Of a DNA stretch of 5,611 nucleotides, positions 1 through 5,611 are shown in pieces. Numbering within the stretch: position 1 is the first letter of the stretch; each line of letters starts with the position of its first letter. Source of the DNA: a virus; the IMG/VR virus record IMGVR_UViG_3300045988_003906, positions 1 through 5,611 of that record. One strand, given 5' to 3'. The notes under the pieces were generated by a model. The model saw nothing but the letters and a program-made list of their open reading frames with translations, was not told the DNA's origin and did no database searches. The position numbers and the translations under genes are program-made.

Positions 1-55
1 AAGCACTGGCACAGGAGGGGCGGGAAGAAAACCGGGAAGAAAACCAAGCAAAGAT
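1..55. repeat. Terminal redundancy, copy 1 (identical to 5557..5611): overlap of a circular genome assembly
   Basis: Read base by base: aagcactggcacaggaggggcgggaagaaaaccgggaagaaaaccaagcaaagat occurs at 1..55 and again at 5557..5611. The unit length is therefore 5556 nt. An ORF continues in frame across the implied junction. Confidence 0.95.
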
Positions 56-130
56 GAACTCGAATACAAACCAGGAAGAGATTACATCGGGAGCAAAAAC
101 GTCGAATTTTGGAAAGGAAAACTAAAATAA
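1..130 (+). CDS. VP2: 3' end of VP2 (minor capsid / DNA pilot protein), wrapping from 4838..5556 across the circular junction; partial in the linear window
   Basis: The frame is carried over from 4838 (position 1 is the third base of a codon; codons start at 2, 5, ...). It reads ...[40 protein letters not shown], then TAA at 128..130, directly abutting the VP4 ATG at 131. Confidence 0.85.
   Translation, partial: STGTGGAGRKPGRKPSKDELEYKPGRDYIGSKNVEFWKGKLK
21..44 (+). repeat. Perfect 12-nt tandem duplication (cgggaagaaaac x2) inside the VP2 C-terminus, encoding GRKP-GRKP; also seen at 5577..5600 in the redundant copy
   Basis: 21..32 and 33..44 are identical. The duplication is in frame (12 nt = 4 codons). 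Confidence 0.9.
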
Positions 131-1150
131 ATGGGATGCAATAAACCGCTAATCCGGTTTTATGTGCCTCATAACAGAGAGGCGAGCGGGCGAGTGTACT
201 CACTCGCCTCTTTTAACGAGATACACAAAACCAAAATAACTTACGAAGATTTAATATACAGGAAAGATGTAATGTTGATACCATGCGGACAATGCACCGG
301 ATGCAGACTCCGCAAACGCAAAGACTGGTCTACACGAATGGAACTAGAAGCATACGGACACAACAAAGAAACCATCTGGTTTATTACACTGACTTATGAT
401 GATGACCATGTACCAACACAAGACACAGAGACAGGCGAAATCTACAAGGGTGGCATAAACATCTGGAAAGGCACCTCAGAGCGTCCAAGAACAGCGCAAA
501 CTCTAAGCGTAGAGGATACCCAACTATTTATAAAAAGGCTCAGAAAGGCCGTCAAAGAGCCTCTGAGATACTTTTTAGCGGGAGAATACGGAGACAACAC
601 AGCACGACCGCACTATCACATGATACTATACGGGTGGCATCCAGACGACTTAGAACCAATACACAAACTGTCAAGACACGGTCATTATACAAGCGATAAG
701 CTAGTAAAAATCTGGGGACAAGGTACAGTGGACATAGCACAGGCAACACCAGAGACATATAATTATGTTGCAGGGTATGTAACCAAAAAACTATACGGGA
801 ACGACAAAAAACGTTACCAAAAAATGGGTTTAATACCACCATTTTGCACCATGAGCCGTAAGCCGGGGCTCGGGGACAAGTGGTTTGAGGACAACCAAGA
901 GCGACTCTGGCAACAAGGATACATACAGCTTACCAACGGCAAGAGAGCCGCAATACCAGAATACTACTGGCGAAAACTAGAGGCCACAAATCCCGAAAAA
1001 GCATGGAGAATCAAGAAGTATCGGCAGGGAAAAGCTATAGCGTCCCTAATCGATAGAAACTCGGAAACCGATAAACCATATGCAGAGCAGTTAAAAGACA
1101 AAGAAACCTCCATGTCAAAGAAAATGAGCAAAGCCAAAGGAGTATTTTGA
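131..1150 (+). CDS. VP4: VP4, Microviridae replication initiation protein (HUH/rolling-circle endonuclease)
   Basis: 339-aa ORF with the three rolling-circle Rep motifs in order. These are WFITLTY (motif 1), ARPHYHMILYGW (HUH, His codons at 611..619) and YNYVAGYVTKK (tyrosine motif, Y codons at 758, 764 and 776). An N-terminal Cys cluster PCGQCTGCRLRK is typical of gokushovirus VP4. The ATG abuts the VP2 stop. Confidence 0.95.
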   Translation: MGCNKPLIRFYVPHNREASGRVYSLASFNEIHKTKITYEDLIYRKDVMLIPCGQCTGCRLRKRKDWSTRMELEAYGHNKETIWFITLTYDDDHVPTQDTETGEIYKGGINIWKGTSERPRTAQTLSVEDTQLFIKRLRKAVKEPLRYFLAGEYGDNTARPHYHMILYGWHPDDLEPIHKLSRHGHYTSDKLVKIWGQGTVDIAQATPETYNYVAGYVTKKLYGNDKKRYQKMGLIPPFCTMSRKPGLGDKWFEDNQERLWQQGYIQLTNGKRAAIPEYYWRKLEATNPEKAWRIKKYRQGKAIASLIDRNSETDKPYAEQLKDKETSMSKKMSKAKGVF

Positions 1151-1163
1151 CACTTTGGTGTCA

Positions 1164-1210
1164 CTCAGCCAAGTAACTATCAAGTAAGATACTTGGCTGA
1201 GAATTTTATT
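1164..1210 (+). terminator. Hairpin terminator candidate after VP4 (end of the genome-length transcription unit)
   Basis: A perfect 12-bp stem, ctcagccaagta (1164..1175) pairing with tacttggctgag (1190..1201), has a 14-nt loop and is followed by aattttatt. A second 6-bp hairpin, tgacac/gtgtca (1148..1153 / 1158..1163), encloses the VP4 TGA stop. The loop is large for a classical intrinsic terminator. Confidence 0.55.
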
Positions 1211-1219
1211 GAATCATTA

Positions 1220-1263
1220 AATGCACACGCACGCGCACGTAATCGCGCACGCGCACGTGCATT
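1220..1263. repeat. (GCGCAC)n-like alternating purine/pyrimidine tract arranged as an imperfect palindrome
   Basis: Hexamer register: ACGCAC GCGCAC GTAATC GCGCAC GCGCAC GTGCAT. The 13-nt direct repeat cgcacgcgcacgt occurs at 1228..1240 and 1246..1258. The outer inverted arms are aatgcac (1220..1226) and gtgcatt (1257..1263). Strictly alternating Py-Pu runs cover 1222..1241 (20 nt) and 1244..1261 (18 nt). Folded as a hairpin by hand it gives about 14 of 19 pairs, and all mismatches are A.C. Confidence 0.85.
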
Positions 1264-1318
1264 ATATTATTATTTTTATTATTAACTTGTTGTAGACGTA
1301 GTAGTAGGGAGTGTTGAA

Positions 1319-1402
1319 ATGTTGAATACTATGAATTTTTATCCTTGGAACGATATTTTTTGGCTAATTTTAATGTTGATACTTTTGTGGAAAACATGTT
1401 GA
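1319..1402 (+). CDS. Candidate 27-aa hydrophobic micropeptide (speculative)
   Basis: Hand translation gives MLNTMNFYPWNDIFWLILMLILLWKTC, with a stop TGA at 1400..1402. AGGGAG (1306..1311) lies 7 nt upstream of the ATG. The ORF sits in T-rich non-coding-looking DNA, which yields hydrophobic codons by composition alone. Confidence 0.2.
   Translation: MLNTMNFYPWNDIFWLILMLILLWKTC
1386..1394 (-). promoter_or_regulatory. DnaA-box-like 9-mer (TTTTCCACA on the minus strand), copy 1
   Basis: The + strand reads tgtggaaaa, whose reverse complement is TTTTCCACA. This fits the relaxed DnaA box TT(A/T)TNCACA. It is embedded in the 21-nt repeat. Confidence 0.35.
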
Positions 1403-1423
1403 ATTGTTGAAAGTGTAGCAATA

Positions 1424-1443
1424 TGCACAAAAACCTTTGTGCA
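1424..1443. other. Perfect 8-bp hairpin between the two 21-nt repeats
   Basis: tgcacaaa (1424..1431), loop aacc, tttgtgca (1436..1443). Confidence 0.6.
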
Positions 1444-1449
1444 ACATTT

Positions 1450-1458
1450 TGTGGAAAA
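1450..1458 (-). promoter_or_regulatory. DnaA-box-like 9-mer (TTTTCCACA on the minus strand), copy 2
   Basis: The + strand reads tgtggaaaa at 1450..1458, in the same orientation as copy 1 and 64 nt downstream of it. Confidence 0.35.
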
Positions 1459-1528
1459 CCTGTTGAAACTGTTGAAACTGTTGAAAAAGCAATTAAAGGC
1501 CGTCCGGCGAGCGAAACCGAGAAGCCAC

Positions 1529-1568
1529 GTCATGCTCTTTGCACGGCGCACCGCGCCTAGCGCATGAC
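1529..1568. other. GC-rich nested hairpin inside a GC island (about 1497..1572); candidate ssDNA structural element
   Basis: The outer stem is gtcatgctct (1529..1538) pairing with agcgcatgac (1559..1568), 10 bp with one T.C mismatch. The inner hairpin is ggcgc (1545..1549), loop acc, gcgcc (1553..1557). The element is flanked by AT-rich sequence. Confidence 0.5.
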
Positions 1569-1573
1569 CTCTC

Positions 1574-1622
1574 AAAAAAAGTTTAAAAAAACTATTGACA
1601 AATCTAAAAAGTATAGTATAAT
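1574..1622 (+). promoter_or_regulatory. Near-consensus sigma70-type promoter with UP-element-like A-tracts
   Basis: TTGACA (1595..1600), a 16-nt spacer, then TATAAT (1617..1622). Upstream is A7-GTTT-A7 (1574..1591), which falls at about -38 to -55 relative to a predicted start near 1629. Downstream, AAAGGAAGG (1633..1641) lies 9 nt before the ATG at 1651. Confidence 0.75.
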
Positions 1623-1650
1623 ATAATCGAAGAAAGGAAGGCAACAAAAA

Positions 1651-1848
1651 ATGAAAAAGCCTAGACTGAACGAAAGGACCATCGCAAGACTCGAAATCTA
1701 CGGGCTAGCATGGTGCAGCAAATATTACTACGAGATAAAAGACTACATGGACTCGGAAGGAAATCGTTACGAGACACTTGAACGGACAAATCTTAAAACC
1801 GGAGACATAGACGAATTCGACTGGGATGAATACATTAAAAAGGCTTGA
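1651..1848 (+). CDS. Hypothetical 65-aa protein, first gene after the promoter; no family recognised
   Basis: The ATG has a GGAAGG Shine-Dalgarno 9 nt upstream and the consensus promoter 30-55 nt upstream. The stop TGA (1846..1848) sits in the loop of a terminator hairpin. The base composition is A-rich like the other coding regions. Protein: MKKPRLNERTIARLEIYGLAWCSKYYYEIKDYMDSEGNRYETLERTNLKTGDIDEFDWDEYIKKA. Confidence 0.7.
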   Translation: MKKPRLNERTIARLEIYGLAWCSKYYYEIKDYMDSEGNRYETLERTNLKTGDIDEFDWDEYIKKA

Positions 1849-1864
1849 CAAGCCTTTTTTTTTT
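1837..1864 (+). terminator. Intrinsic terminator-like hairpin plus T10 run after the 65-aa ORF
   Basis: aaaaaggctt (1837..1846), loop gac, aagccttttt (1850..1859), within a T run spanning 1855..1864. The upstream A-run makes it symmetric. A weaker second hairpin, agcac/gtgct (1888..1892 / 1896..1900), followed by a T run, lies downstream. Confidence 0.6.
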
Positions 1865-1949
1865 ACCTATACTGGAAACAGTTAAACAGCACAAAGTGCT
1901 TTTTTTACAAAACAATTTATACAAAAATAATTTTAAGGAGGTGTTTGCT

Positions 1950-2054
1950 CTGACTCTCAAAGAAATTAACGCGCTGTTTAACAACATCCGCAAAATCTTA
2001 GCCATGTTGGATAAGATTTACCACGCCGTAGAAAGCAAAAAGCCCGAGGAATAA
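1950..2054 (+). CDS. Possible 34-aa helical peptide initiated at CTG behind a perfect Shine-Dalgarno (uncertain start)
   Basis: AAGGAGGTG (1935..1943) is the strongest SD in the window. The only in-frame start-like codon at proper spacing is CTG at 1950, 8 nt after GGAGG. Product: (M/L)TLKEINALFNNIRKILAMLDKIYHAVESKKPEE. The track's TTG start at 1845 lies inside the terminator stem. Confidence 0.3.
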   Translation: MTLKEINALFNNIRKILAMLDKIYHAVESKKPEE

Positions 2055-2074
2055 CAAAAAGCCCGAGGAATAAC
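2037..2074 (+). repeat. Perfect 19-nt tandem duplication aaaaagcccgaggaataac x2
   Basis: 2037..2055 and 2056..2074 are identical. Copy 1 encodes KKPEE plus the TAA stop (2052..2054). Copy 2 supplies GAGGAA (2065..2070) 7 nt before the GTG at 2078. Confidence 0.95.
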
Positions 2075-2077
2075 CAA

Positions 2078-2299
2078 GTGAAAACATGGAACGTACGAGA
2101 TCAGACCGATACAACACTAGCGATGACACTCGCAAAAACTTACAAGGAGATCGAGGCGACATACAAGCACGTAAGAACAGCCGCCACGATAGAAGACGCA
2201 AAATTTTATATCGAAATGGCATTTCGCAAAAAAAATTTTGCAAATGAAATCGAGATGGAACAAATCCGAAGGAGAATCAACAATGGCGAAGAGGAGTAG
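2078..2299 (+). CDS. Hypothetical 73-aa protein (GTG start); no family recognised
   Basis: The GTG has a GAGGAA SD at 7-nt spacing. The predicted protein is helical and charged (…AKTYKEIEATYKHVRTAATIEDAKFYIEMAFRKKNFANEIEMEQIRRRINNGEEE). Its 3' end overlaps the next gene by 17 nt and contains that gene's SD. Confidence 0.55.
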   Translation: MKTWNVRDQTDTTLAMTLAKTYKEIEATYKHVRTAATIEDAKFYIEMAFRKKNFANEIEMEQIRRRINNGEEE

Positions 2300-2402
2300 A
2301 GTACGCAAATCCAAAGACGCAAAAATTTACAACAAGACCGCACGAAAGACCAAGGCAATCAACCTTGGCACCGGTGCAATGCGAGGGGGCATTAGATTAT
2401 GA
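2283..2402 (+). CDS. VP8: Small highly basic DNA-binding/packaging protein (phiX174 J-like; gokushovirus ORF8/VP8-like); absent from the ORF track
   Basis: Hand translation gives MAKRSRVRKSKDAKIYNKTARKTKAINLGTGAMRGGIRL (39 aa, 13 K/R). AAGGAG (2269..2274) lies 8 nt before the ATG. The stop TGA (2400..2402) overlaps the next ATG (2399) as ATGA. The size, charge and C-terminal RGGxR(L/F)-type ending match my recollection of the small basic peptides of SpV4/Chlamydia-type microviruses. Confidence 0.72.
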   Translation: MAKRSRVRKSKDAKIYNKTARKTKAINLGTGAMRGGIRL

Positions 2403-2638
2403 TTAACGTGTATGGTATCTACGACCAGTGTGCTATGTGCTACATCACCACATTTAACGAGCGAGACGATAAAGTCGCCGAGCGCAACTTTAAGATTGCG
2501 CTCACGGACGAACAAAACATCATGAGCAAGACGCCAAGCGACTACAGACTTGTGCGGCTCGCAAAGTTTGATGAAAACGAAGGCACATTCAAAGAAGAAA
2601 AGGAGAACATTTACGATGGCGTATCGCTCAGTAAGTAA
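2399..2638 (+). CDS. VP5: VP5-like small non-structural protein (ORF5 family, proposed ssDNA synthesis/packaging role)
   Basis: 79-aa ORF in the canonical position immediately upstream of and overlapping VP3. GAGGGGG lies 9 nt upstream of the ATG. The pattern INVYGIYD...F...AERNF...P.DY.LVRLAKFDENEGTF resembles what I recall of gokushovirus VP5. This needs HMM confirmation. Confidence 0.65.
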   Translation: MINVYGIYDQCAMCYITTFNERDDKVAERNFKIALTDEQNIMSKTPSDYRLVRLAKFDENEGTFKEEKENIYDGVSLSK

Positions 2639-3110
2639 CTACAGACAAACCGCAGCGGCATGGCCGACCGAAGCCGGCGAAAGTGTGAGACGTACATACC
2701 TTTGGGAGCGAAACGAAAAAGGCGAAAAAGTACTGAGGCTCGACCAGACAATTGACCAACAAGCGGAAATAAATAGCTACCTAGAAGAAACCAAAATAGA
2801 AAACATCATACGGCGGGCAAGCATCGACCCAAACATTGCAGCGCGAATCGCGCCAGACCTTGGCGGCGGCATCCAAGACTACACCGAGGCACCGCAGACA
2901 CTGGCAGAGCTCCAGAATATCATGATTCGGGCTGAGCAGATTTGGGACGAAGTGCCGAAAGAAACCAAACTCAAATTTGACAACGACGTCGATAAATTTA
3001 TTGCATCGTTCGGCACAGTCGAATGGGCTAAAAATCTGGGCATATATCAGGAAAAACAGACCGAAACCGAAACGGCCAAGGCAACGGAGGCTAAAGAATC
3101 TAAAGAATGA
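2616..3110 (+). CDS. VP3: VP3, internal scaffolding protein
   Basis: I chose the ATG at 2616 (MAYRSVSNY...) because AAGGAG (2600..2605) precedes it by 10 nt. The track's TTG at 2550 and the ATG at 2571 lack an SD. The central/C-terminal region DYTEAPQTLAELQNIMIRAEQIWDEVPKETKLKFDNDVDKFIASF matches the conserved core of Chlamydia-phage-type scaffold proteins. The stop overlaps the VP1 ATG (ATGA at 3107..3110). Confidence 0.85.
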   Translation: MAYRSVSNYRQTAAAWPTEAGESVRRTYLWERNEKGEKVLRLDQTIDQQAEINSYLEETKIENIIRRASIDPNIAARIAPDLGGGIQDYTEAPQTLAELQNIMIRAEQIWDEVPKETKLKFDNDVDKFIASFGTVEWAKNLGIYQEKQTETETAKATEAKESKE

Positions 3111-4792
3111 ACAGAAACAAAGATGCAGGATTTAACCAAGTTCCGCGGCTGGACATCACGCGAAGCCGCTTTAAAAGACGGCAAGACGTCAAACTAACGC
3201 TAAACGCCGGGCAACTTATCCCGTTTTATGTCGATGAGGTGTTACCGGGTGACACTTTTAGCATTGACCAAGCGGCGATTATCCGCATGACAACGCCCAT
3301 CTTTCCAGTCATGGACAACTGTTACATGGACATCTATTATTTTTTCACACCTAACCGGATTTTGTGGAAAAACTGGAAAAGATTTATGGGCGAGAACGAC
3401 AAAGGGCCGTGGGCACAAGAACAAGAATATACCATACCGCAAATCGCATGCAAAGACGGAACAGAACAAAGCCCCCTGCCAAAAGAAGGAAGCATCCTTG
3501 ACTACATGGGCATACCGACAAAAGTAAACAAAAGTACAGAAACACAATTTTACATCAATGCACTACCCGTTAGAGCTTATGCCATGATTTGGCAAGAGTG
3601 GTTCAGAGACCAAAACGTAGACAATCCAGCAATTATCTCAACCGAAGACGCAACAGTGGACTACACAGACGATGTAAATAAAGGCATGGACGGGAAAACA
3701 CCGGACATTGATTACATTCTTCAAAACGCATATAGAGGCGGCAGACCTTTGCCGGTAAATAAGTTTCACGACTACTTTACCTCAGCGTTGCCGAGTCCGC
3801 AGAAAGCAGGAGAATCAATAACAATCCCAATGGGCGGAAAAGCCCCGGTAATCGGATACGAATATAACAGCAACACGAAAACGCCAGGCAAATTAAATTT
3901 TGTAACTCATGTCGGACAAAATTCAACCATCGAAAATACCGAAGAAGGACCGCTACAGCTGAACGCCTACGTAATCGAAGATGGAAATTACTATTTCGAA
4001 AGCATGGACTTGTTCACAGACATGAGCAAAGTAAGCAGTACAACCATCAACCAGCTGAGACAGGCTTTCCAGGTACAAAAATATTACGAACAGTTAGCAC
4101 GAGGCGGAAGCAGATACCGCGAAATGATTTATTCGCTGTTCCACACAAAAATTAGCGATAAAACAGTACAAATCCCGGAATATCTGGGCGGAACACGCCT
4201 TACAATCAACATGAGTCAGGTAATCCAGACCAGCGGAACAACAGCTGAAAGTCCGCAGGGCAACACAGCAGCAATAAGCGTTACGCCATACAATGGGCAC
4301 ATGTTTACGAAAAGTTTCGAGGAGCACGGCTACGTTATAGGTGTATGTTGCATCCGACACGACCACACCTATCAACAGGGGCTCGAAAGGATGTGGAGCC
4401 GTAAAACCAATCTAGACTTTTACTATCCGGTGTTCGCAAATCTGGGCGAACAAGCAATTCTCAAGAAAGAAATCTATCTAGGCGACACGAAGACCAACGA
4501 AGAGGCATTTGGATACCAAGAAGCATGGGCAGAATACCGAATGAAGCCAAACCGAATCTGTGGCAAATTCCGCAGCAACGCAACGGGAACGCTTGATAGT
4601 TGGCACTATGGTGACAACTACGATAAGGTACCAACCCTAAGCCAAGCATGGATGAAGGAGGGAAACTCTGAAATTCAGAGAACTCTCGCAGTAGACAACG
4701 AACCACAATTTATCATGGACACGGTCATTGACAACACCAGCGTAAGACCCATGCCAATGTACAGCATTCCGGGTCTCGTTGACCATCACTAA
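3107..4792 (+). CDS. VP1: VP1, major capsid protein (Microviridae F-like jelly-roll)
   Basis: 561 aa. The N-terminus FNQVPRLDITRSRFKRRQDVKLTLNAGQLIPFYVDEVLPGDTF is a hallmark of gokushovirus VP1. It is the longest ORF, sits in the canonical position after VP3, and is translationally coupled to it. Confidence 0.97.
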   Translation: MNRNKDAGFNQVPRLDITRSRFKRRQDVKLTLNAGQLIPFYVDEVLPGDTFSIDQAAIIRMTTPIFPVMDNCYMDIYYFFTPNRILWKNWKRFMGENDKGPWAQEQEYTIPQIACKDGTEQSPLPKEGSILDYMGIPTKVNKSTETQFYINALPVRAYAMIWQEWFRDQNVDNPAIISTEDATVDYTDDVNKGMDGKTPDIDYILQNAYRGGRPLPVNKFHDYFTSALPSPQKAGESITIPMGGKAPVIGYEYNSNTKTPGKLNFVTHVGQNSTIENTEEGPLQLNAYVIEDGNYYFESMDLFTDMSKVSSTTINQLRQAFQVQKYYEQLARGGSRYREMIYSLFHTKISDKTVQIPEYLGGTRLTINMSQVIQTSGTTAESPQGNTAAISVTPYNGHMFTKSFEEHGYVIGVCCIRHDHTYQQGLERMWSRKTNLDFYYPVFANLGEQAILKKEIYLGDTKTNEEAFGYQEAWAEYRMKPNRICGKFRSNATGTLDSWHYGDNYDKVPTLSQAWMKEGNSEIQRTLAVDNEPQFIMDTVIDNTSVRPMPMYSIPGLVDHH

Positions 4793-4808
4793 AAAGAAAG
4801 GGGGAAAA

Positions 4809-4837
4809 GCCCGGGGCATTACCCCGGGCATATTTTT
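4809..4837 (+). terminator. GC-rich hairpin plus T-run between VP1 and VP2 (attenuator/terminator candidate)
   Basis: gcccgggg (4809..4816), loop catta, ccccgggc (4822..4829): a perfect 8-bp, all-but-GC stem. It is followed by atattttt, running straight into the VP2 ATG at 4838. Confidence 0.55.
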
Positions 4838-5611
4838 ATGGGACTTTTATCAGCAGCACTACCAATACTTAAATCAATAGCACCATCAGTAATAAGCTGG
4901 GGCATAAATAAACTCCTAGGCGGCAACATGGCAGAAAGCAGCGGAGGAAGCCAACAGCACAACGAAAGCTCAAGCCAAGGAGGCGGTTACAGCAACAGCG
5001 CCAGCGGCGTAAACAGAGACCAAAACTTACAAGACTGGAATAGTATGCTCGGAGCAATCCAAGCAAATATGCAAAGTCAACAGAAATTTAACCGCAAAAG
5101 CATGTTTGAACAGATGGGTTATAACACCATGGCAGCAATCACTCAGGGAGTATACAACCAAATAAGCAACAACGCGGCAATGAGCTACAACAGCGCCGAA
5201 GCGGCAAAAAACAGAGCTTGGCAAGAACAAATGAGCAACACAGCATACCAAAGAGCCGTAGCCGATATGAGAAAAGCAGGAATCAATCCTATTTTAGCAT
5301 ATCAGCAAGGCGGGGCAAGCACACCGGGTGGAGCACAAGCAACAATCAGCGGAGCGAGTATGGGACTTGCAAGCAGTAGTGCGGCAAGCGCAAGTGCTCT
5401 AGGAGTAAGCCAGAACCACAACAACACATGGAGCAAGAGCGAAAGTAACTGGTACAACGCAGCACAAGCGGTCGGAGACGCGACAAGCTGGCAACACACA
5501 AGCGCAGACAAGGCATTCAACGAATTCAAGGACGTCTTTAACAGCCTCAGCAGTCTAAGCACTGGCACAGGAGGGGCGGGAAGAAAACCGGGAAGAAAAC
5601 CAAGCAAAGAT
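4838..5611 (+). CDS. VP2: VP2, minor capsid / DNA pilot protein; open at the window end and completed at 1..130 (282 aa in the circle)
   Basis: The ORF is not in the supplied track because it has no stop before the window end. Hand translation of all 258 codons to 5611 found no stop. It reads [29 protein letters not shown]... with the conserved core [31 protein letters not shown] typical of gokushovirus VP2. It also has Gly/Ser/Gln/Asn-rich tracts and lies in the canonical position after VP1. The unique part ends at 5556. Confidence 0.9.
5557..5611. repeat. Terminal redundancy, copy 2 (identical to 1..55)
   Basis: See 1..55. The sequence is redundant and not an extra genomic repeat. Confidence 0.95.

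Follow-up and report, generated by a model that had tools for sequence, protein, structure and literature searches.

A candidate DnaA-box and DnaA-trio module in the VP4–VP8 interval of a gut gokushovirus genome

Layout of the VP4–VP8 interval

The stretch of DNA analysed in this study, hereafter the window, is 5,611 nucleotides (nt) in length (positions 1–5,611 of IMG/VR record IMGVR_UViG_3300045988_003906); minus its 55-nt terminal overlap, it is one complete circular gokushovirus genome of 5556 nt. All genes are located on the + strand. VP4 (131–1150, phrog_942), the replication initiator, was assigned by Pfam and PHROGs searches to the gpA-like HUH Rep proteins; VP8 (2283–2402) is followed by VP5, VP3 and VP1, and VP2 spans the genome ends. 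Our subject is the interval between VP4 and VP8 and, in particular, its non-coding core, where an AT tract, TAG trios and an array of DnaA-box-like repeats form a candidate DNA-unwinding module. Three open reading frames (ORFs), of 65, 34 and 73 amino acids (aa), lie in the interval, and none of them has a significant match in Pfam or PHROGs; ORF and conservation checks gave no credible gene in 1151–1650. A preliminary description of the window had listed these 500 non-coding nt, structured GC islands, iterons, a consensus promoter, terminators and three ORFs without family, all of which are present, and its size of about 34 aa for ORF2 is correct (1950–2054, CTG start). GC islands or hairpins are at 1148–1163, 1164–1201, 1221–1262, 1424–1443 and 1529–1568. 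The best explanation of the layout is a predicted three-part, clade-wide architecture: a non-coding control region (1148–1570), a cassette (1574–1866), and ORF2 plus ORF3, which head the VP8-VP5-VP3-VP1 block.

A chimeric assembly, which the preliminary description had named as a possible artefact, was ruled out, as positions 1101–2330 are 100% identical to the window in seven independent assemblies. Contigs of several human-gut datasets, made with different assemblers, encode an ORF1 protein identical to that of the window. In GenBank, 46 phage records match part of the interval. Eight gut gokushoviruses, sampled from human, pig and monkey, align collinearly with it (∼77–86% identity), and none of them carries any annotation there. 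SpV4, phiMH2K and Chp2, which are cultured and 4.4–4.6 kb in size, have nothing comparable, and a module general to gokushoviruses was therefore rejected. Taking this absence and the collinearity of the gut relatives together, the interval appears as extra DNA at the scale of the subfamily, yet as an old shared feature of the ∼5.5-kb gut clade. The view that it is an inserted accessory module thus stood in part: the DNA is extra relative to the classical 4.4–4.6-kb gokushoviruses, but it is neither a single insertion nor private to one genome; only ORF1 is variable, whereas the non-coding core, ORF2 and ORF3 are clade-wide. Alignment to related gokushoviruses, the check proposed earlier, showed a layout common to the relatives with varying content in the ORF1 slot, and origin-like or regulatory DNA together with a lineage-variable gene is indeed located in the interval.

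AT tract, TAG trios and box array

The core begins with one AT-rich tract (1261–1286) of 25 consecutive A/T, the proposed DNA-unwinding element. Among 62 distinct aligned genomes, the basis of the counts in this section unless another number is given, the 30 nt upstream of the trios are on average 81% AT. The tract is followed on the + strand by TTG TTG TAG ACG TAG TAG TAG (1287–1307), nearly invariant and proposed to be DnaA-trios (3′-GAT-5′ is 5′-TAG-3′). TAA and CAG are the sole variants of the three box-proximal TAGs, and runs of (TAG)5–6 are seen in many genomes. GGAG (1308–1311), a GC cluster, forms the spacer from the trios to the first box. The proposed DnaA boxes (1312–1487, +) are ten 9-mers TGT(G/T)GA(A/T)AN, all in the same orientation, the reverse complement of TT(T/A)TC(C/A)ACA; they start at 1312, 1320, 1374, 1386, 1397, 1405, 1450, 1461, 1470 and 1479, and CTGTTGAAA forms a tandem of three copies at 1460–1486. 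In 44 genomes, the site at 1386 reads as a perfect TGTGGATAA, which on the opposite strand is the DnaA box TTATCCACA; the window has TGTGGAAAA there. The commonest repeat of the array is TGTTGAAA, not the classical TGTGGATAA, and TGTTGAAA and TGTGGAAA interchange at five sites. Over 620 site instances, position 4 is T in 491, G in 125, A in 2 and never C, and position 7 is A in 514 and T in 100. A Spo0A 0A-box (TGTCGAA) was rejected, since position 4 is never C and TGTCGAA is in none of the 62 cores. Two further good DnaA-box matches lie in VP1 in opposite orientation, TTTTTCACA (3341–3349, +) and TTTTCCACA (3363–3371, −), 22 nt apart from start to start.

This arrangement was compared with the basal unwinding system (BUS) of bacterial oriC, which is predicted in most bacterial origins. 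Published BUS elements consist of one or more DnaA-boxes, a spacer of ≤16 bp including a ∼4-bp GC-rich stretch, at least three central-A trios, and then the unwinding region; 3′-GAT-5′ is the commonest trio, especially beside the box. In published searches, the box lies ≤16 bp from the trios and differs from TTATCCACA, or from the box of the species in question, at ≤2 positions. The order is 5′-(boxes)-GC-CTACTATTACTTCTACTA-(AT)-3′ in B. subtilis, the 3′ end being distal to the boxes, and 5′-CACCTACTACTATTACTACTATGA-3′ is located upstream of the unwinding element in C. difficile. In the window, three TAGs stand at 1299–1307 and one more at 1293; the spacer is GGAG, and in relatives GGGC, GGCAC or GGGGA. 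Read on the + strand, AT tract, TAG trios, GC and TGTGGATAA-type boxes correspond to the B. subtilis and C. difficile order in reverse complement. The trio-proximal boxes TGTTGAAAT (1312) and TGTTGAATA (1320) each have three mismatches to the classical box but only one to the Mollicutes DnaA-box consensus, given in a review as TT(T/A)TC(C/A)ACA. The counterparts of these two boxes in relatives read TGTGGAAAA, have one mismatch and pass the published rule.

The enrichment of these elements was measured against shuffled sequences. TGTTGAA has seven copies, all on the + strand within 174 nt (1312–1485), compared with 1.08 expected, a number reached in 0 of 200 shuffles. With ≤1 mismatch, the Mollicutes consensus, which was found after the motif had been seen, matches 20 times in the window (6.1 ± 2.6 expected; 0 of 200 shuffles), and nine same-strand sites fall in 176 nt (mean 1.45, maximum 4 in 500 dinucleotide shuffles). 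That consensus derives from a few mollicute origins, and the host of the phage is not a code-4 mollicute. Five boxes in 1386–1487, four of them on one strand, match the classical TTWTNCACA with ≤1 mismatch, enough to count as a cluster (at least three such boxes, mean spacing <100 bp), but shuffled sequences reach seven. The composite of (TAG)3, a spacer of ≤16 nt and a box occurs with ≤2 mismatches to TGTGGATAA in 20 of 73 genomes vs 1 of 1460 shuffles, and with ≤3 mismatches in 63 of 73, the window included, vs 3 of 1460.

Conservation and mobility of the core

Conservation was expressed as the mean pairwise identity of nine aligned genomes, picked solely by whole-genome similarity. The segment of hairpins H1 and H2 at the VP4 end reaches 0.934, the top of all segments, and the AT tract, trios and boxes reach 0.834; VP4, VP1 and the whole genome have values of 0.869, 0.771 and 0.758, respectively. 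Further downstream, the promoter region (0.500) and ORF1 (0.368, the lowest) are much less conserved than ORF3 (0.800) and ORF2 (0.698). The conservation of the non-coding core is comparable to that of the best coding sequence and above that of VP1. A core far more conserved than VP4 was discarded, as this result came from a motif-selected genome set, whereas the unbiased set shows comparable values.

In genomes that are just 68–76% identical, the trios, spacer and boxes are kept, whereas the DNA between them, including the hairpin H4, is replaced. In KX513876, the trio/box module (5386–5566) lies between VP2 and VP4, with its orientation relative to the genes reversed; VP4 of this genome is 35% identical, and neither ORF2 nor ORF3 is detectable. 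The inverted location, in a genome without ORF2 and ORF3, suggests that the module acts as a movable unit. Searches of the core against plasmids did not find similar DNA, and an Rfam scan of the region gave a best E of 0.11, to a spurious microRNA. The 17-mer GTAGCAATATGCACAAA also occurs in nine viral contigs of 34–60 kb; these matches were set aside, as only the bare 17–18-mer is shared, at about the number expected by chance on a rough estimate.

Hairpins and GC-rich elements

H1 (TGACAC-TTTG-GTGTCA; 1148–1163, +) is a small hairpin that overlaps the VP4 stop and is kept in close relatives. H2 (1164–1201) has one 12-bp stem (1164–1175/1190–1201), whose arms are 93% complementary, and one 14-nt loop with TATCAAG at 1178–1184, the single + strand occurrence of this heptamer in the window. 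It is followed by AATTTTATT and resembles a terminator too. The pair 1167:1198 is fully compensated, being A:T, C:G or G:C. TATCAAG is in the loop of an 11–15-bp stem in 65 of 78 genomes, and the stems belong to three unrelated families. A loop heptamer that stays fixed while the stems are exchanged is characteristic of a protein recognition site presented by a hairpin, and the TATCAAG loop is likely the recognition site of the Rep, VP4. Its reverse complement CTTGATA is the nick core of phiX174 gpA and pC194-type Reps (CTTG↓ATA), relatives of VP4, and ACTTGATA is seen in the conserved H2 loop when the minus strand is read. On the + strand, the sole CTTGATA is at 4592–4598, within VP1; the arrangement at H2 thus departs from a rolling-circle origin of the gpA/pC194 type, in which the nick core would be on the displaced (viral, coding-sense) strand. 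Because CTTGATA at H2 is read only from the strand without genes, the role of the H2 loop as VP4 nick site is uncertain, a lead and not a result.

The RY element (1221–1262) is a GC-rich, imperfect palindrome of alternating purines and pyrimidines, followed by a T-rich tract; it resembles a terminator boundary and is Z-DNA-prone. The alternation is ≥0.9 in 55 of 62 genomes, with (R-C)n on the + strand and T nearly absent. The minus strand folds ∼6 kcal/mol better in 38 of 42 variants, a preference that follows in part from the (R-C)n composition. Other genomes have alleles made of an ordinary GC hairpin and T-tract at this position, and H2 directly adjoins the AT tract in genomes without the RY element. 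H4 (1424–1443), TGCACAAA-AACC-TTTGTGCA, is located inside the box array. Within the clade, its stem is invariant and its loop varies; in divergent genomes (L095–L097), other hairpins such as CGTCA-aaa-TGACG take its position, so that structure is kept and sequence is not. A second GC island (1497–1570), with a nested hairpin at 1529–1568, has several alleles among the genomes.

The ORF1 cassette

Downstream of the second island, an A-tract and one sigma-70-type promoter, P1 (1574–1622, +), match the consensus at 12 of 12 positions (TTGACA 1595–1600, TATAAT 1617–1622, 16-nt spacer). The −35 and −10 positions are kept in all close relatives, and the gene downstream differs. Over 54 nt, the stretch 1574–1627 shares 91% identity with Enterococcus phages of ∼144 kb (PP582184, PP582187); a relationship of the region to these phages was rejected, as the matches are confined to the promoter, and the likeness probably reflects convergence towards a strong promoter of the Firmicutes type. 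ORF1 (1651–1848, +; 65 aa) is the variable gene of the cassette. It falls into 7 protein clusters of a 5.8-billion-protein database, compared with 336 for ORF3. In 38 genomes anchored on both sides, the ORF1 slot is 200–750 nt in size and is occupied by ORFs from at least seven families unrelated to each other, and two genomes have no ORF there. The ORF1 model has a predicted local distance difference test (pLDDT) score of 71 and consists of one helix, three strands and one helix; against the PDB, no significant neighbour was found. One intrinsic terminator (1837–1866, +), with an 11-bp stem and T-run (1837–1859), closes the cassette and is overlapped by a promoter-like TTGACA-17-TATACT (1845–1873).

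With its own promoter, one variable gene and a terminator, the ORF1 unit has the make-up of a moron-like cassette, the transcription of which is predicted, and ORF1 appears to be the sole accessory part of the interval. An exchangeable cargo position is thus kept even in 5.5-kb single-stranded DNA (ssDNA) phages. In more distant relatives, a gene for a peptidase M15 is located between VP4 and VP5 (L100, 1726–2118; L102, which is KX513876, 1358–1759); on this basis, the VP4-to-VP5 interval is a general cargo site in gut gokushoviruses.

ORF2, ORF3 and neighbouring features

Upstream of ORF2, one conserved hairpin with T-run (1888–1907) and one promoter-like TTTACA-16-AATAAT (1904–1931) form an element (1888–1931, +) that is kept in nine of nine genomes, including those without the 1837 terminator. 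ORF2 (1950–2054, +) encodes a 34-aa peptide, predicted to be helical; its CTG start (1950–1952) is 8–9 nt after AAGGAGG. The start is CTG in 36 and TTG in 2 of 38 genomes, and 37 of them have a Shine-Dalgarno-like motif. ORF2 is coding, with a variation per codon position of 92/40/174. In L001, an in-frame TGA is located two codons ahead of the CTG, and no in-frame start is left upstream. A non-canonical start that is conserved in this way hints that translation is deliberately kept low. One exact 19-nt tandem duplication, CAAAAAGCCCGAGGAATAA ×2 (2036–2073, +), spans the ORF2 stop; it doubles the final ORF2 codons together with the stop codon and supplies the GAGGAA ribosome-binding site for the GTG of ORF3. 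It is absent from eight of eight close relatives and present in seven of seven independent assemblies, a pattern that suggests recent slippage and fixation in the lineage of the window.

ORF3 (2078–2299, +; 73 aa, GTG start) overlaps the VP8 start at 2283. Its 336 protein clusters are all on microvirus-size contigs, and it has 27 invariant residues. The model (pLDDT 89.5) is a charge-neutral two-helix hairpin with helices 6–33 and 38–68. The fold search on the ORF1 and ORF3 models, as suggested in the preliminary description, could be done but brought no function: the PDB has no significant match (for ORF3, the best are two-helix hairpins of encapsulated ferritins, E ∼0.3, which are generic), and the significant BFVD neighbours of ORF3 are solely uncharacterised Microviridae proteins. 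ORF2 and ORF3 are conserved clade genes, and their place at the head of VP8-VP5-VP3-VP1 suggests a role in the late or morphogenetic programme.

Two observations concern the neighbourhood. A hydrophobic mini-ORF of ∼38 aa (e.g. VNVIITVGAGATIIAMCSATFALIVMGIDIVKNWRKNK) is located between VP8 and VP5 in five close relatives, L001 (about 4757–4870), L002, L003, L005 and L006, and is absent from the window (2399–2402), L004, L007 and L008; it is a candidate membrane or lysis peptide. Near the terminal overlap, in the coding part of VP2, the 12-nt tandem repeat CGGGAAGAAAAC occurs 2.1 times at 21–45, equal to 5577–5601.

Host clues

Strong Shine-Dalgarno sites accompany all genes, the promoters are of the sigma-70 −35/−10 type, and the P1 region has the likeness to Enterococcus phage DNA described above. 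Together with the table 11 code and the mollicute-style boxes, these features point to a host in Bacillota rather than Bacteroidota. The VP4 stop in relatives is TGA, TAG or TAA; because the phage uses TGA as stop, a code-4 mollicute is excluded as host. One whole clade genome (L092, CALBJK010000280.1, 5840 nt) was binned in an 'uncultured Prevotella' metagenome-assembled genome (MAG). Given the Shine-Dalgarno sites and the −35/−10 promoters, the binning was judged unreliable and likely an artefact, and Prevotella was rejected as host.

Proposed function of the core and rival explanations

We favour, with moderate confidence, the reading that the non-coding core is an origin element at which host DnaA would open the duplex of the double-stranded replicative form. 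Host DnaA-ATP would occupy the stronger boxes at 1386, 1450 and 1479, with cooperative filling of the weaker TGTTGAAA sites. Starting at the boxes 1312 and 1320, the DnaA oligomer would extend across GGAG onto the + strand TAG trios (1293–1307) and melt the AT tract (1261–1286). The opened DNA could then load the host helicase for plasmid-like replication of the replicative form, or expose the adjacent H2 hairpin to VP4. The analysis shows the sequence grammar, its conservation and independence of orientation, and the variability of the cassette; binding of DnaA, unwinding and its purpose are what we infer. The inversion in KX513876 speaks against a module that would work through the packaged single strand or through a transcript in sense orientation; the occurrence of the module without ORF2 and ORF3, and its constancy despite the divergence of the Rep, argue against a phage-encoded binder. 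The inversion and the independence of phage proteins together favour a conserved host factor that would act on duplex DNA.

Several points weigh against DnaA-dependent opening. We know of no need for DnaA in a rolling-circle phage, and the cultured phiMH2K, Chp2 and SpV4, the last from a mollicute host, do without the module. The boxes at 1312 and 1320 have three mismatches to TTATCCACA, one above the published BUS limit. Several boxes overlap or abut, 8–9 nt apart (8–12 nt over the array), a spacing tighter than in E. coli, where low-affinity box arrays are spaced by ∼11 bp. Taken singly, some of the elements are no rarity: of the shuffled genomes, 6.3% have a (TAG)3 run at some position, and the same-strand cluster of four TTWTNCACA boxes is not above chance (shuffle mean 2.75, maximum 7). 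The choice of the Mollicutes consensus after the fact and the minus-strand location of CTTGATA at H2 count on the same side.

The most serious rival, which we regard as unlikely, is that the 9-mers are iterons for a phage protein (VP4, ORF2 or ORF3) and that their likeness to DnaA boxes is coincidental. That TGTTGAAA and not the classical TGTGGATAA prevails in the array would agree with it, as would the proximity of the array to the Rep gene and to a hairpin whose loop is conserved; ORF3 has a weak PHROG match to a helix-turn-helix protein (E = 0.03), but it is charge-neutral and predicted to be a plain two-helix hairpin. The same repeat, however, is found where VP4 is just 35–55% identical and where ORF2 and ORF3 are missing, one site is a perfect DnaA box in 44 of 62 genomes, and trios, GC spacer and AT tract in the right polarity are not expected for Rep iterons. 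Somewhat less probable is that the boxes do bind DnaA but serve as a sink, like datA, or as a transcription operator instead of an origin. A dense cluster of about 10 boxes on a high-copy replicon would suit a sink, and titration by box clusters is established biology; such a role needs boxes only, and it leaves the nearly invariant trios, spacer and AT tract unexplained. As for an operator, the array ends 108 nt upstream of the P1 −35, with a GC hairpin between them.

In phiX174 (PAS), in G4 and in plasmids with sso elements, hairpins on the single strand serve as origins, and hairpins of the packaged strand could likewise recruit RNA polymerase, primase or a PriA primosome here, so that the complementary strand is made. 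ssDNA phages need such a site somewhere, and the region has several stable hairpins (fold vs shuffles, z = −2.8 for the + and −4.5 for the − strand). We nevertheless regard this as improbable for the core: origins of this type are orientation-dependent, yet the module is inverted in KX513876; for the two GC hairpins, it is the minus strand that folds better (38/42 and 48/49); and what is conserved is the repeats, with only H4 in the centroid fold. The 1497–1570 island alone could have such a role. That the core encodes a product, either a 27-aa membrane peptide (1319–1402) or a structured non-coding RNA, is very improbable. The micro-ORF is hydrophobic and intact in 50 of 72 genomes, but otherwise conserved copies have in-frame stops, ∼10 genomes have a differing sequence, and its variation per codon position, 140/212/231, is without third-position bias; owing to the stops and this variation it was rejected as a gene. 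No promoter is located ahead of the core, and the Rfam result given above does not speak for an RNA. The least probable of all is a 28-bp, dif-like XerC/XerD integration site as in enterogokushoviruses. Some gokushoviruses do have dif motifs in their non-coding DNA; in the window, the best matches to eight dif sequences have 16–19 identities vs shuffle means of 17–18. Among 185,579 genomes, a VP4 scan gave no integrated relative, and a search for the core pattern found only one MAG-binned contig of 5.8 kb. With matches at shuffle level and no integrated relatives, a dif/XerCD site and prophage integration were rejected.

Host-DnaA-dependent opening by the core is thus the reading we carry forward. 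The preliminary description had held that no specific function can be read from the sequence, which is too pessimistic for the non-coding part, as its grammar fits a known DNA-unwinding system. Of the roles guessed there, replication control or persistence is possible, and nothing points to anti-defence. A bolder idea, which we regard as doubtful, is that this gut microvirus clade acquired a chromosome-type DnaA origin and that its replicative form persists like a plasmid, independent of the rolling circle. If true, this would be an ssDNA 'phage-plasmid' lifestyle, which would explain the long-term gut carriage of gokushoviruses, and the box dialect could be used to predict unknown hosts. Microviruses are textbook rolling-circle replicons, thought to need the Rep plus host elongation and priming factors only. 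A conserved chromosome-origin grammar would mean that abundant uncultured gut phages engage the master initiator DnaA, which bears on persistence without integration; the module would also be a compact, natural test case of 230 nt for the DnaA-trio model. Within the library covered, our literature search found no mention of Microviridae with 'DnaA box', nor of a gokushovirus with DnaA.

Comparison with known systems

The phage shares a gpA-like Rep with the phiX174 gpA and pC194 origins, and CTTGATA is in its H2 loop on the minus strand. Different from the phiX174 origin, which is on the viral strand and not in a hairpin, the phage heptamer is hairpin-presented and opposite the genes. pSC101, P1 oriR and R6K are DnaA-dependent origins that also need their own iteron-binding Rep; the phage is likewise a mobile replicon with putative DnaA boxes beside an AT-rich region. 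The 'A site' of the ABC primosome is a DnaA-box hairpin, whereas the phage forms no hairpin that contains a box, and all its boxes face one way. The ORF1 unit resembles the morons of tailed phages, which are promoter-gene-terminator units between core genes: it has its own strong promoter, a terminator and a varying gene, but is located in a microvirus genome.

Reverse-complemented, the phage family TGT(G/T)GA(A/T)AA gives precisely the consensus of the Mollicutes boxes, and the two degenerate positions agree as well; at many phage sites, the final base is T, C or G instead. The closest likeness is with BUS as in B. subtilis incC (boxes 6/7), where the orientation of the boxes used in the polarity comparison presumably follows that of E. 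coli R1. The phage has the same order and polarity of elements, with at least three box-proximal 3′-GAT-5′ trios, a 4-nt GC spacer, an AT tract beyond the trios, tandem same-orientation boxes next to the trios and further boxes upstream. Unlike BUS, the phage module is located in a 5.5-kb ssDNA genome and not beside dnaA/dnaN; its box dialect differs, being mostly TGTTGAAA (TTTCAACA), with the proximal boxes one mismatch over the limit and a tight spacing. Taken together, comparative sequence evidence favours the reading that the core is an unwinding module of DnaA boxes and DnaA-trios, an element of a known kind that would here have a new setting in an ssDNA phage.

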